Source of the DNA: Candidatus Pacearchaeota archaeon
GTDB taxonomy: Archaea; Nanobdellota; Nanobdellia; Pacearchaeales; GW2011-AR1
Reading direction: 5' to 3'
DNA: 64,000 nt
NCBI GenBank assembly: GCA_016181885.1
Contig: JACOYJ010000026.1
Span: 1,185-65,184 of the forward strand
Part shown: one piece after another, positions 2,909-5,148 of the stretch
Layout: each line of letters opens with the position of its first letter
How positions within the stretch are numbered: position 1 is the first letter of the stretch
Notes under the pieces: generated by a model
Database searches by the model: none
The model's input: the letters and a program-made list of their open reading frames with translations, nothing else
Told to the model about the DNA's origin: nothing
Made by a program: the position numbers and the translations under genes

Positions 2909-3074
2909 GCCTCAGTAGTATAATGGCCAGTACACGAGCCTGTCGCTTGGCGAGGACACCTACGGTTTCCTTAATTTAATCTTCCCTTACCGAAGAAAGC
3001 AAGAAAACTAAAGGACGATATGGTCTTTGCCCAGCAGAACGCTTGAGATCCGAGTCCGATTCTCGGCTGGGGCG
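2909..3074 (+). tRNA. tRNA-Asp(GUC) with a ~94-nt intron at canonical position 37/38 (intron 2946-3039)
   Basis: Acceptor GCCTCAG/CTGGGGC with one G-U pair. Anticodon stem CGAGC/GCTTG, loop CTGTCG gives GTC. T-arm CCGAG-TCCGATT-CTCGG. Discriminator G73, an Asp identity element. The two exons are separated by 94 nt. The D-arm is irregular. Confidence 0.55.
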
Positions 3075-3199
3075 TCCAGAGTTACGAAGACGCCCGTAAC
3101 CGCAGTATAAATATTACTGTAAATATGGGCAGATATTTCTTACCATTACATTTCAATCCAAAACGTTATATTTAAATAGTTTGTAATGGTAATAATTTC

Positions 3200-4054
3200 A
3201 TGAGAATTATAGCTAAAAAGAAAGGCAATAGAGAATATTACTATTTGCAACACTCATTTAGAAAAGGAAAAAAAGTTATTACAAAAGAAAAGTATCTTGG
3301 GATGAAGATTCCAAAGAATGTAGATGAGATAAAAGGTGAGTTTAGCAGAGACTTAAAAAAAGACCTTTATAAAAAATTAGAAAGGATAAAGGCCAATTTT
3401 CAGAAAGAGTGGAAGAGGCTTCCAATAAGCGTTCAAGAAAAAGAAAAAGAACAGATTTCTATAGCGTTTACCTATAACTCTAATGCTATTGAGGGTTCAA
3501 CAATTACTTTGCACGAAGCAAGAGAAATCATTCAAGATAAGATTGCTCCAAATAAGCCAATTAGAGATATAAAAGAAACAGAAATGCATAATAAAGTATT
3601 TTTAGATATGTTGAAAAAAAAAGAAAAGATTGGTAATGAGTCGTTGTTGGGATGGCATAAAGAAATCTTTGGAGGAACTAAACCAGATATTGCTGGAAAG
3701 TATAGGAATTATCTTGTAAGAGTTGGGAGTTATATTGCTCCACATTGGAATGTAATAAGACCAACAATGAGCCGTATCGTGGAGTTTGTTAATAAATCTA
3801 AGTTAAATCCTGTTGAGCTGGCTGCAAGAGCTCACTATAAGTTTGAAAGCATACACCCGTTTGGCGATGGTAATGGCAGAATTGGAAGGTTGCTTATGAA
3901 TCATATTCTTTGGCATGCAGGTTATCCAATGTTAATTATTGAATATAAGAAGAGGAAATCTTATTACAATGCATTTCCAAAAGGCCAAGAAGCATTCGTC
4001 GATTATTTCTTAAAGAGATATTTAGCAGTTCATAAGAAAAGATATGTCAAGTAG
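3200..4054 (+). CDS. fic: Fic/Doc family protein (AMPylator-type toxin)
   Basis: Canonical Fic motif HPFGDGNGRIGR. Confidence 0.85.
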   Translation: MRIIAKKKGNREYYYLQHSFRKGKKVITKEKYLGMKIPKNVDEIKGEFSRDLKKDLYKKLERIKANFQKEWKRLPISVQEKEKEQISIAFTYNSNAIEGSTITLHEAREIIQDKIAPNKPIRDIKETEMHNKVFLDMLKKKEKIGNESLLGWHKEIFGGTKPDIAGKYRNYLVRVGSYIAPHWNVIRPTMSRIVEFVNKSKLNPVELAARAHYKFESIHPFGDGNGRIGRLLMNHILWHAGYPMLIIEYKKRKSYYNAFPKGQEAFVDYFLKRYLAVHKKRYVK

Positions 4055-4075
4055 TTTTTCACCCTCCTAACCTTA

Positions 4076-4088
4076 TCGGCTGGGGCGT
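4076..4088 (+). repeat. 13-bp direct repeat (tcggctggggcgt) copying the tRNA-Asp 3' end (3064-3076); att-like duplication bracketing the Fic gene
   Basis: Exact 13-mer match between 3064-3076 (T-stem 3' strand, acceptor 3' strand and discriminator) and 4076-4088. Confidence 0.5.
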
Positions 4089-4151
4089 ACCTTTTTTTGT
4101 TATTTATTTTGCATACAAAGAACAGAAAAGCTTATAAACTAAAATAGACAC

Positions 4152-4724
4152 GTGTCTTATGTGATGGATACGTATACTATAAAATGGACACGATTGCAGA
4201 CAGAGGTATTTAGATTTCTTTGTATAAAGGCAGGTCAAAGTTTGAATTTAAGGGAAATAGCAAAATCATTGAAAAAATCCCCCACTGCTGTTTCTAAATC
4301 ATTGCAAGATCTGGAAAAAGAAGGATTAGTAAAAGTAAGAAAAATAGGTAATATGAATTTGCTTTCTATAGAATTTAATCGAGATAATGAGATAGCAATT
4401 GAGCTAAAGCGTGTTGAAAATTTAAAGCTTATTTATGAGTCTGGACTTGCTAAATTCTTAGAAGAAAATTTTCCCGGAACAACCATCATTCTTTTTGGGA
4501 GTTATTCAAGAGGAGATGATGCTTGGACCAATGAAGAGACTAAGTCTGATATTGATATTGCAATTATAGGAACAAAAAGCAAGGAAATAAAGTTGACAGA
4601 ATTTAATAAAAAACTCGAAAGGACAGTGATAATTAATTTTTATCCTTCATTTAAGGAAATCCATAAACATTTAAAAGACAATATATTAAATGGTATTGTC
4701 TTATCGGGAAGTGTAGATCTATGA
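4152..4724 (+). CDS. minimal nucleotidyltransferase (MNT) with N-terminal wHTH; antitoxin-type partner of HEPN
   Basis: GS-X9-D-X-D NTase signature (LFGSYSRGDD...DIDIAI). N-terminal HTH-like segment. Confidence 0.7.
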   Translation: MSYVMDTYTIKWTRLQTEVFRFLCIKAGQSLNLREIAKSLKKSPTAVSKSLQDLEKEGLVKVRKIGNMNLLSIEFNRDNEIAIELKRVENLKLIYESGLAKFLEENFPGTTIILFGSYSRGDDAWTNEETKSDIDIAIIGTKSKEIKLTEFNKKLERTVIINFYPSFKEIHKHLKDNILNGIVLSGSVDL

Positions 4725-5148
4725 AATTGCCTAAAGAATTTGAATATTATATTGGAAAAGGGATAATGAAGAAGCAAGCTTCAGACAAACCGAGAGCAGA
4801 GTTTCTGATTAACGAAGCTGAAACCTCTTTGAAAGGATTAATTAAAAGAGTTAGATTGATGAGTTTAATGCCAACTCTATAATAAAAGATTGCTATGATA
4901 TAATTATGGAATTGATAAGGGCAAAACTTCTTTTAGAAGGATATTCTGCATCCGGAAGCTTTGCGCATGAAGGAGAAATTTCATACCTTAAAAAAATTGG
5001 ATTTTCTGACAGTGAAATCTCTTTTTTGAATGAATTAAGATATTCTAGAAATTCAATAACTTATTATGGCAAAATCTTGAATAAAGAATACGCTGAAAAG
5101 GTTTACGCTTTTTTGAACAAAGTTATAGTAAAATTAAAGGCTCAATAA
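4721..5148 (+). pseudogene. HEPN-domain protein split by a frameshift into 4721-4882 and 4906-5148
   Basis: The first ORF (MKLPKEFEYYIGKGIMKKQASDKPRAEFLINEAETSLKGL...) and the second (…LRYSRNSITYYGK…) together give HEPN length. The frames overlap at 4855-4882. The start ATGA overlaps the MNT stop. Confidence 0.4.

Follow-up and report, generated by a model that had tools for sequence, protein, structure and literature searches.

A Fic gene between copies of a tRNA-Asp 3′ end in a Pacearchaeota genome: a probable one-gene integrative cassette with relatives at other archaeal tRNA genes

The 3′ ends of tRNA genes serve as integration sites for archaeal elements of the SSV/pNOB8 type and for the integrated mobile genetic elements of thaumarchaea, which insert into the 3′-distal part of tRNA genes, including intron-containing ones, keep the tRNA intact between tRNA-end direct repeats, and also integrate in tandem (PMC6563490). 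In this study, a 64,000-nt stretch of contig JACOYJ010000026.1 of Candidatus Pacearchaeota archaeon (assembly GCA_016181885.1, positions 1,185 to 65,184), hereafter the window, was analyzed, in which an intron-containing tRNA-Asp gene is followed by a lone Fic gene bracketed by two copies of the tRNA 3′ end, an arrangement that an earlier note on this DNA had pointed out. The Fic unit resembles the archaeal tRNA-end elements in all these features, but those are multigene and carry their own integrase, while the Fic unit is 1 kb long and has one gene and no recombinase (PMC6563490). Its repeats of 12–15 nt are also shorter than the att sites of crenarchaeal elements, which measure 29–69 bp (cited in PMC6563490).

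Three other described systems come near to it. The cis-mobilizable elements (CIMEs) of streptococci, which build up by site-specific accretion, likewise have attL and attR without integration or transfer genes and lie in tandem at the end of a target gene; however, they are viewed as case-specific decay products of integrative and conjugative or integrative and mobilizable elements (PMC5704250), while the Fic unit is one conserved unit at several tRNAs in many archaeal lineages, and has no conjugation context. The tycheposons of Prochlorococcus share with it the streamlined host genomes, the tRNA-adjacent islands with partial-tRNA repeats, the defence cargo and the displacement of older insertions inward by newer ones, but they are bacterial, much larger, and encode tyrosine recombinases and replication modules (10.1101/2020.12.28.424599). 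Casposons are archaeal, recognize a tRNA 3′ end through its T-psi-C region, the element of A. boonei needing a T-psi-C loop segment for targeting, and produce a duplication of ~15 bp (PMC5137440); the Fic unit differs in having neither terminal inverted repeats nor Cas1 nor PolB, and in the variable length of its repeat. The closest concepts are CIMEs with accretion and the islands built by tycheposons, and what is new here is a single conserved one-gene unit spread over many lineages and several tRNAs. Integron cassettes and Xer-dependent dif/pdif modules are also units of one or two genes, which are inserted by a recombinase acting in trans, form arrays and often carry toxin or defence genes. 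Similar to these, the Fic unit is very small, without its own recombinase, found in arrays and with a cargo of likely defence function, but it has no attC, attI, intI or dif-like site, brings its own promoter and is located at a tRNA 3′ end. Integrons have been described in archaea as well (PMC9668308).

In the window, the 13-mer TCGGCTGGGGCGT occurs exactly at two sites only (Table 1). The repeat claimed in the earlier note is thus exact, with the right copy where the note had placed it, but the left copy is located one base off, at 3063–3075 and not 3064–3076. Extended to 3060–3075 vs. 4073–4088, the two copies are identical at 15 of 16 positions. No third copy was found in the 64 kb, even when 2 mismatches were allowed. 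For this G+C-rich word in A+T-rich DNA, 1.2e-9 chance occurrences are expected at each site and 7.7e-5 on each strand of the window; within the window it is not a common word, the case that the note had named as a danger to its reading. As the note had stated, Fic is the sole open reading frame (ORF) enclosed by the copies, along with its own promoter, and no integrase is located between them. The right copy is followed by ACC-TTTTTTT, while the occupied tRNA-Asp gene has no T-tract and an uninterrupted tRNA-Asn gene of the window has TTTTT directly after it. Since the occupied tRNA lacks a T-tract, the right copy and the T7 tract are read as the original tRNA-Asp end and terminator, pushed 1 kb off; no tRNA-like sequence was found upstream of the right copy. 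The displaced terminator, together with the repeats of relatives, which match their own tRNAs, agrees with the note in taking the 13-mers as insertion junctions at the tRNA-Asp 3′ end. Positions 3076–4075 are therefore read, with good probability, as a ~1-kb minimal, non-autonomous integrative Fic cassette, moved in trans, whose insertion point was the very end of the tRNA-Asp gene on its 3′ side.

The left spacer of the cassette is not homologous to those of the related loci L100 and L009, and conservation with them begins at window position 3139, while C/T-rich right ends before the repeat were also found in L100, L068, L071 and L010. At the left junction, the tRNA end GGGCGTC (3071–3077) can pair with GACGCCC (3090–3096), forming a 7-bp inverted repeat across the junction; none was seen at the right repeat. 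The G+C content of the window is 35%, and its lowest value, 30.9%, is found in the stretch 4089–6512.

The note's tRNA-Asp with an intron was borne out. ARAGORN with introns allowed reports a tRNA at 2909–3074, for which it places the intron at 35/36 and gives the label Tyr(gta); the gene was not picked up by default ARAGORN or by an Rfam gathering scan. However, a canonical bulge-helix-bulge motif (3-4-3), formed by a 4-bp helix C32-U-G-U35/GCAG and the 3-nt bulges C36-G37-c and a-a-C38, puts a 94-nt intron at 37/38 and yields the anticodon GUC. Because of this placement, and because the motif is retained in L007, L009 and L100 even though their introns differ (66, 116 and 127 nt), the gene is assigned to tRNA-Asp and not tRNA-Tyr. 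The fold constrained to the motif lies 3.1 kcal/mol above the minimum free energy in ViennaRNA, and a complete cloverleaf, with a 7-bp acceptor stem and D, anticodon and T arms, was obtained from the ARAGORN and ViennaRNA folds. Under established identity rules, G73 and the G1-C72 pair would also agree with Asp.

Several further observations were made on tRNA introns and ends. L007, a Logan contig (SRR12113383), is 100% identical to window 1943–2946, then carries a wholly different 66-nt tRNA-Asp intron, which is homologous to that of L009 and retains the splice motif, and then the same 3′ exon. Two intron alleles in otherwise identical flanks suggest intron replacement or recombination at the tRNA. 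A second long-intron tRNA of the window, Asn(GTT) at 33186–33383 on the + strand with a 125-nt intron, is directly followed by TTTTT; its 3′ end is not duplicated, and it was likewise not picked up by default ARAGORN or the Rfam gathering scan. In L100, three direct copies of the tRNA-Asp 5′ end (GCCTACGTGGTCT), spaced ~70–80 nt apart, lie upstream of the gene at 4555–4720, two of them forming a 22-nt repeat, a hint that the tRNA 5′ end, too, may have received insertions or retain scars.

Fic homologues number in the thousands, and the best 120, at 69–100% identity, are nearly all from metagenome-assembled genomes (MAGs) of Pacearchaeota, Nanoarchaeota and Woesearchaeota; 80 Fic loci at 61–86% identity were found in species-representative genomes, and some loci come from MAGs labelled Aenigmatarchaeota, Iainarchaeum, Bathyarchaeia, Methanosarcinales or Patescibacteria. 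About 100 related loci were compared, with 85 non-redundant ones used for most counts. Gene neighbourhoods of Fic vary widely among them. A same-strand tRNA ends within 250 nt upstream of the Fic start in 18 of the 85 loci, mostly at a distance of 58–62 nt, and is called Asp, Glu(CTC/TTC) or Ser(GGA/GCT) by ARAGORN, the program that misnamed the window's own tRNA and on which all tRNA identities in relatives rest. The last 12–15 nt of the local tRNA reappear 18–70 nt past the Fic stop, usually followed by oligo-T, and at least nine loci besides the window have their own tRNA end as the right repeat. The repeat is perfect in L100 (tRNA-Asp, 13 nt, CCGGCGTGGGCGT), L059 (tRNA-Asp, 12 nt, GGTCAGGGCGTA), L068 (tRNA-Glu, 15 nt, TCTCGGTCGGGGCGT), L088 (tRNA-Glu, 14 nt, CGGTCGGGGCGTAT, with 16 of 17 positions identical when extended) and L053 (tRNA-Ser, 14 nt, CTGCCGTGGGCGTA), while one mismatch was found in L023 and L031 and decayed copies in L009, L045 and L062. 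Related Fic genes at tRNA-Asp without flanking repeats, the finding that the note had set against its own reading, were not what the comparison gave, as L100, L009 and L023 are all flanked by repeats of their own tRNA end.

The recurrence was also evaluated against controls. Perfect repeats of at least 12 nt around Fic were found in 14 of 75 loci vs. 0 of 50 shifted controls, and the last 12 nt of the local tRNA had 13 additional copies, compared with 0.1 expected from shuffled queries. Consistently, the hexamer GGGC[GA]T is present at the left border of the cassette in 29 of 85 loci vs. 2.2% of background tiles (p ~6e-27), and many cassettes without an adjacent intact tRNA still adjoin a tRNA-end scar. 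The repeats measure 11–15 nt at tRNAs and 17–30 nt or more at a few non-tRNA sites. Literature searches on Fic-tRNA cassettes or on Fic in DPANN archaea returned nothing relevant.

Other surroundings of Fic were noted in single loci. In L019, L081, L090, L036 and L056, Fic is flanked by non-tRNA-like direct repeats of 17–30 nt or longer, the repeat of L090 being the 3′ end of a protein-coding gene and that of L056 spanning the promoter of the next gene downstream together with its start. In L084 and L077, both from Bathyarchaeia MAGs, the flanking repeat corresponds, in reverse complement, to a tRNA 3′ end with its CCA (TGGCGCGGGATGT; AAAGCGCGGGGTGT) and is located 130–110 nt upstream and 26–158 nt downstream of Fic, with the tRNA on the opposite strand between the left repeat and Fic, a geometry unlike that of the DPANN loci. 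An ORF of ~300 aa with an N-terminal helix-turn-helix (HTH) and an LGDG motif recurs in L033, L035, L063 and L068 near tRNA-Gln or tRNA-Glu, either 1.5–1.8 kb upstream or 0.5 kb downstream of Fic; it is presumably the source of four LAGLIDADG_3 matches in a batch Pfam scan, and it looks syntenic with these tRNAs rather than tied to Fic.

Several loci bear marks of separate insertion events. The window, L100 and L009 all have the order SerRS, tRNA-Asp, Fic. Their tRNA-Asp genes end in different acceptor sequences (CTGGGGCG, CGTGGGCG and TCGGGGCG, respectively), and each downstream repeat matches its own tRNA. L009, L010 and L011 are ~100% identical rightwards from the core, through PemK/MazE, Fic and beyond, while three unrelated left flanks are joined to them exactly at the tRNA-end core, with a tRNA there in L009 only. 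In L033, tRNA-Glu is directly followed by Fic, while in its relative L035 a 1.4-kb segment (4529–5930) with one 386-aa ORF, secreted-looking and without a family, is placed in between and bounded on both sides by the 12-nt repeat CGGCAGGGGCAT. A third perfect core copy (10697–10708) is located in L035 3.8 kb beyond Fic, overlapping the end of a TrmB-like gene, and the right ends of the two L035 segments have in common a 28-nt repeat with two mismatches. L033 and L035 are a filled-versus-empty pair for the neighbouring cassette, not for the Fic cassette, and the L035 tRNA-Glu anchors an array of small cargo segments. L028 has an internally deleted cassette between tRNA-Ser and an intact Fic cassette; this remnant retains both end sequences and yields a 25–32-nt repeat that equals the cassette right end plus core. 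L027 and L028 were also considered as an empty and a filled site, and this pair was dropped, the region being rearranged with oppositely oriented tRNAs.

A provirus was found at one of these sites. In L098/L109 (IMGVR_UViG_3300015370_001125, 7780–7915), the end of a head-tail type provirus with terminase, portal, ParB and C5 DNA methylase genes adjoins four tandem tRNA-3′-end-like scars, which are mutually different and 10–40 nt apart, followed by Fic at 88% identity. Because the provirus abuts this scar array beside Fic, integrating viruses are taken to use the same sites.

Fic is less diverged than its host context. The synonymous divergence (dS) of Fic is 0.73–1.10 vs. 2.2 to saturated for the syntenic SerRS gene, and third-position identities are 65–72% and 45–51%, respectively. 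More than 30 relatives of Fic were found at 80–89% identity, while the best relatives of the adjacent winged helix-turn-helix (wHTH) gene in the same database are at only 80, 72 and 70%.

A recombinase was searched for in the cassette, the window and the neighbourhoods of relatives. None is encoded between the repeats. The window contains 31 ORFs of 200 aa or more, and the 20 of them that were scanned with Pfam gave no integrase, transposase or Cas1. Among 148 ORFs of 240–470 aa, taken from within ~3 kb of Fic in ~80 loci, a batch Pfam scan gave no recombinase family, IntI-type and Cas1 included, with two or more members, and clustering of 811 neighbour ORFs gave no recurrent family. For the 328-aa ORF next to the scar array of L098, and for the ORFs of the left element in L010, Pfam, PHROGs and a PDB sequence search gave no match. 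As no recombinase was seen in any of these places, the mover acts in trans or is Fic itself.

Table 1. Features at the tRNA-Asp locus of the window (positions in nt of the 64,000-nt stretch).
Feature	Position	Strand	Description
tRNA-Asp(GUC) gene	2909..3074	+	5′ exon 2909–2945, intron 2946–3039, 3′ exon 3040–3074; no encoded CCA
Left direct repeat, attL-like core	3063..3075	+	last 12 nt of tRNA plus 1 nt, TCGGCTGGGGCGT; exact-match search
Lineage-specific spacer, cassette left end, 61 nt	3076..3136	+	contains GACGCCC (3090–3096); no oligo-T after tRNA
Conserved Fic promoter block, 63 nt	3137..3199	+	inverted repeat TTACCATTACA (3140–3150)/TGTAATGGTAA (3182–3192) around TATA-like TTTAAATA (3171–3178)
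Fic gene, 284 aa	3200..4054	+	Pfam Fic
Cassette right end, pyrimidine-rich, 21 nt	4055..4075	+	tttttcaccctcctaacctta; from the sequence
Right direct repeat, attR-like core	4076..4088	+	TCGGCTGGGGCGT; read as displaced original tRNA 3′ end
T7 tract	4092..4098	+	presumed original tRNA-Asp terminator, now 1 kb from the gene
wHTH-MNT nucleotidyltransferase gene, 186 aa	4164..4724	+	alternative GTG start 4152; outside the repeat-bracketed cassette
MNT-partner gene, split	4721..5148	+	PADLOC PDC-M05B; N-part 4721–4882; C-part open from 4854, first ATG 4906, to 5148
DUF7557 gene	5965–6186	+	Pfam DUF7557 1.5e-8; overlaps 114-aa ORF 6168–6512

The Fic protein matches Pfam Fic at 7e-21 (75.2 bits vs. 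a cutoff of 24) and carries the catalytic motif HPFGDGNGRIGR (H219-PFGDGNGRIGR) and the class II inhibitory motif S94-NAI-E98-G99, (S/T)xxxE(G/N), which aligns with the TVAIEG segment of FICD. Both motifs are invariant in 28 homologues, except for the Ser94 position, which is Thr in most. Its core (residues 76–272) matched human FICD in a profile search of PDB with E = 5e-40, and the AlphaFold2 (AF2) model, with a pLDDT of 85, matched FICD in Foldseek at 4e-12; in PADLOC, the single-gene candidates PDC-S04 (8e-32) and SoFic (1e-29) were matched. The protein is conserved over its full length, with a mean column identity of 67–75% in the family-specific N-terminal 75 residues, where residues 2–34 of the model form a three-stranded beta-meander peculiar to the family, for which a fold search gave no significant match. 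Fic is thus predicted to be a class II, self-inhibited, FICD-like AMPylase, with a likely role in defence or addiction. It has in common with FICD/HYPE and SoFic the core HPFx(D/E)GNGRxxR and the upstream inhibitory (S/T)xxxE(G/N) helix, but FICD, at ~28–30% identity, has TPR repeats and a membrane anchor, neither of which is present here, and the C-terminal wHTH of SoFic is absent, while the N-terminal beta-meander is unique to the window protein's family. A Fic homologue in L058 (6001–6945) has a 34-residue insertion between core helices, just ahead of the KLNPVELAA segment.

A repeat search of the window also detected the inverted repeat TTACCATTACA/TGTAATGGTAA, whose arms enclose the TATA-like box in front of Fic. 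Of the 85 loci, 73% have such a palindrome, with perfect arms of 8 nt or more and a spacer of 28–33 nt, compared with 3.8% of controls. From one subfamily to another, its two arms vary in concert (CCATTACA, CCCTACAT, TACCTACA, CCCTTACA). The conserved promoter block begins 1–5 nt past the tRNA discriminator base, which puts the left arm of the palindrome 1–5 nt from the insertion junction. As the arms change together between subfamilies, the palindrome suggests a putative operator for a dimeric repressor, possibly Fic, and Fic is probably auto-repressed through this site around its TATA box. Many loci also have hairpins related to the palindrome 3′ of the Fic stop (GTATCA-cttt-TGATAC; TGACCACA...TGTAGTCA).

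In the mechanism proposed for the integrative Fic cassette, insertion would leave the tRNA intact and displace its last 12–13 nt and the oligo-T terminator to the far side, where they would be met as the second 13-mer. The cassette, having no recombinase of its own, would depend for its movement on an enzyme that acts in trans on tRNA 3′ ends, most likely a tyrosine-type integrase supplied by a virus or plasmid in the same cell, and it would thereby be a CIME-like or cassette-like element, at whose tRNA newer elements could stack. The anatomy of the unit, its recurrence, the origin of the repeat from the local tRNA and the absence of a recombinase in cis are shown by the data, while the enzyme, a circular intermediate and the function of Fic are inferred. 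The empty site would read ...CCGATTCTCGGCTGGGGCGT|ACCTTTTTTTG, and the junction of a circular form ...CCTAACCTTATCGGCTGGGGCGT|CCAGAGTTACG.

Several results weigh against this proposal. In about two thirds of the Fic family members no tRNA-like core is seen, and the repeats of some, at 17–30 nt or more, are not tRNA sequences. With a dS of 0.7–1.1, the spread of Fic is not recent, and the G+C content does not set the cassette apart, since its value is 32.4% vs. 35.4 ± 2.5%, and the contrast, which the earlier note had proposed to check, is too weak for use in G+C as in GC3. A repeat perfectly identical to the local tRNA across differing tRNA ends is a poor fit to a single ancestral att exchange, and no trans-acting recombinase was identified in any scan made. 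Further, for the Fic cassette the analysis found neither a tRNA-Asp site without the insertion nor a circular junction nor polymorphism between strains. An exact 30-mer of the tRNA-Asp 3′ exon had 0 matches in the genome-contig and the metagenome-contig collections; the relatives of the left-flank wHTH gene (80% in L146, 72% in L099, the only one from a metagenome, and 70% in L147) are in no case followed by tRNA-Asp; and when the exact Fic, wHTH and MNT proteins were looked up, all contigs obtained came from Logan and were 100% identical to the window, none of them an empty-site variant. Two Fic-only contigs of ~1 kb (L107 and L108) showed no terminal overlap. Contig break points near 3046 and 4071 were also considered, and were set aside as not readable as graph branches with any confidence.

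Two rival explanations of the repeats are both unlikely and stand about level. In the first, a larger integrase-bearing virus or plasmid in tRNA-Asp would have lost everything but Fic, leaving attL and attR behind. Among archaea and bacteria, integrases commonly insert elements at tRNA 3′ ends, and decayed remnants of elements are common too (PMC6563490; PMC5704250; 10.1101/2020.12.28.424599); the L098 provirus adjoins tRNA-end scars and Fic, and the core copy 3.8 kb beyond Fic in L035 would allow Fic to be left-end cargo of a larger unit. However, independent decay would not repeatedly produce the same ~1-kb Fic-only unit at four or more tRNA genes, with perfect repeats and a conserved left border 1–5 nt past the tRNA, and the deleted remnant in L028 retains both cassette ends. 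The viral relatives of Fic do not help this explanation either, since just 1 of ~38 on viral contigs is close, and that one is located at a contig edge; besides it, IMG/VR gave 36 distant relatives (29–39%), and no parent element was found. The note had called the island minimal or decayed, and of these the minimal unit stands, while decay is less likely because the same Fic-only unit with perfect repeats recurs in many lineages, at Asp, Glu and two Ser tRNAs.

The second, of a similarly low probability, holds that the repeat is a target-site duplication, made by a transposase-like enzyme in trans, casposase/Cas1-like or other, through staggered cuts 12–15 bp apart at the tRNA 3′ end. The perfect identity of repeat and tRNA across lineages with different ends would fit this as well, the repeat always equalling the tRNA end of its own locus, also in lineages whose tRNA-Asp acceptor stems are not alike, and its lengths at tRNAs do cluster at 12–15 nt; the casposon of A. 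boonei, with a 15-bp duplication overlapping the tRNA-Pro 3′ end, is a precedent (PMC5137440). Against it, the length of the repeat varies, from 11–15 nt at tRNAs to 21–32 nt or longer elsewhere, and identity often runs on with mismatches past the perfect block, as in the window (15/16) and L088 (16/17). No terminal inverted repeats were seen on inspection of the cassette ends, and no Cas1 or transposase family is recurrent among the neighbours. An integrase acting in trans is favoured over a duplication-generating transposase because of the variable repeat length, the mismatched extensions, the absence of terminal inverted repeats, the shared right ends in arrays and the habit of archaeal elements (PMC6563490), which together point to att recombination of the integrase type.

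At a slimmer chance than either, the Fic units may form a new class of archaeal one-gene elements at several tRNA 3′ ends, whose mover would be a novel tRNA-end-specific system with integron-like arrays, or Fic itself. The latter alternative taken strictly, with Fic as an autonomous one-gene element that would bind a terminal inverted repeat through its N-terminal beta domain and direct or catalyze insertion at tRNA 3′ ends, is very improbable. It would account for Fic being the only gene of the unit, conserved over its full length including the N-terminal 75 residues, with no other recombinase found in the scans, and for a co-varying palindrome arm 1–5 nt from the junction, which recalls insertion sequence (IS) transposases that bind a terminal repeat overlapping their own promoter. 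However, the catalytic core is that of a typical FICD-like AMPylase with the inhibitory Glu, the N-terminal domain has no significant fold match, an operator is the simpler explanation of the palindrome, and Fic-less cassettes occupy the same sites (PemK/MazE in L009, the 386-aa ORF in L035). Moreover, enzymes of the Fic/Fido type are not known to cut or join DNA. That nothing moved at all, the second 13-mer being a chance match, a remnant of local tRNA duplication or a terminator or processing signal of the Fic transcript, is hardly credible, for even though the 13-bp repeat is short and the oligo-T after it could terminate Fic transcription, the chance is ~8e-5, nothing tRNA-like precedes the second copy, and different tRNAs, arrays and alternative left flanks are inexplicable without insertion events.

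Directly downstream of the Fic cassette, the note had reported a minimal nucleotidyltransferase (MNT) gene and a split HEPN gene. The first is confirmed by Pfam NTP_transf_2 (4.5e-9, 37 bits vs. a cutoff of 21), along with HTH families, by PADLOC PDC-M05A (3e-15) and by the motif FGSYSRGDD...SDIDIAI, which equals the GS...DxD of Pol-beta-type nucleotidyltransferases, while the NCBIfam MntA match (2.4e-5, 24 bits) remains under the cutoff of 60. The partner gene, which overlaps it by 4 nt, is truly split, as three-frame translation shows it broken between two reading frames near 4853. Its ~600 homologues, at up to 83% identity, are single intact ORFs of 143–151 aa, and two residues are absent at the junction in the alignment, which argues for an out-of-frame deletion of ~10 nt and not a homopolymer slip. 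The identical split is found in Logan assemblies of other sequencing runs (L001 and L008), so that a misassembly in a single sample is not its cause.

The HEPN identity of the partner was not confirmed. The fused ORF has no Pfam match at E up to 0.1 and no PDB profile match, NCBIfam gives one match, far under its curated cutoff, and none of the 120 homologues listed carries a Pfam domain; the only match is PADLOC PDC-M05B (1.9e-5), the partner of PDC-M05A. In place of the catalytic Rx4-6H motif of HEPN, it reads R111-N-S-I-T-Y116-Y-G, with the Tyr invariant in 26 family members (RNSxTYYG), and its reading as a HEPN toxin is unproven. The pair resembles HepT/MntA (type VII HEPN/MNT) in that an MNT-fold gene overlaps a ~145-aa partner gene by 4 nt, and it is covered by the PADLOC candidate PDC-M05 A+B, but here the MNT protein has an N-terminal wHTH, and the partner has Tyr for the catalytic His (RNxxxY), no HEPN match and a frameshift. 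The phrase "three toxin-type modules" used for this region is accordingly loose, as Fic is a self-inhibited AMPylase without antitoxin pairing, MNT is of the antitoxin type, and the third gene is inactivated and has no HEPN motif. Further downstream, the DUF7557 gene and the 114-aa ORF that it overlaps (5965..6512) may be another module of two genes. The DUF7557 gene of L100 directly follows the Fic right repeat, which indicates that the MNT segment of the window is a further, lineage-specific addition.

For annotation, these results mean that default tools overlook long-intron tRNAs, and that tRNA-end 12–15-mers are markers of cassette borders, whose junctions are predictable. DPANN archaea have tiny genomes, few mobile elements have been described in them, and their gene exchange is largely obscure. 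The Fic cassettes, which stack with other small modules (PemK/MazE, MNT pairs and further ORFs) and range from Pacearchaeota to MAGs labelled Bathyarchaeia, point to a simple and widespread gene-delivery route in archaea, and their FICD-like cargo, related to the SoFic defence gene, ties AMPylation to the archaeal pool of mobile and defence genes. If Fic did mobilize itself, with its N-terminal beta domain on the palindrome, a Fic-fold enzyme would have a role in DNA mobility.

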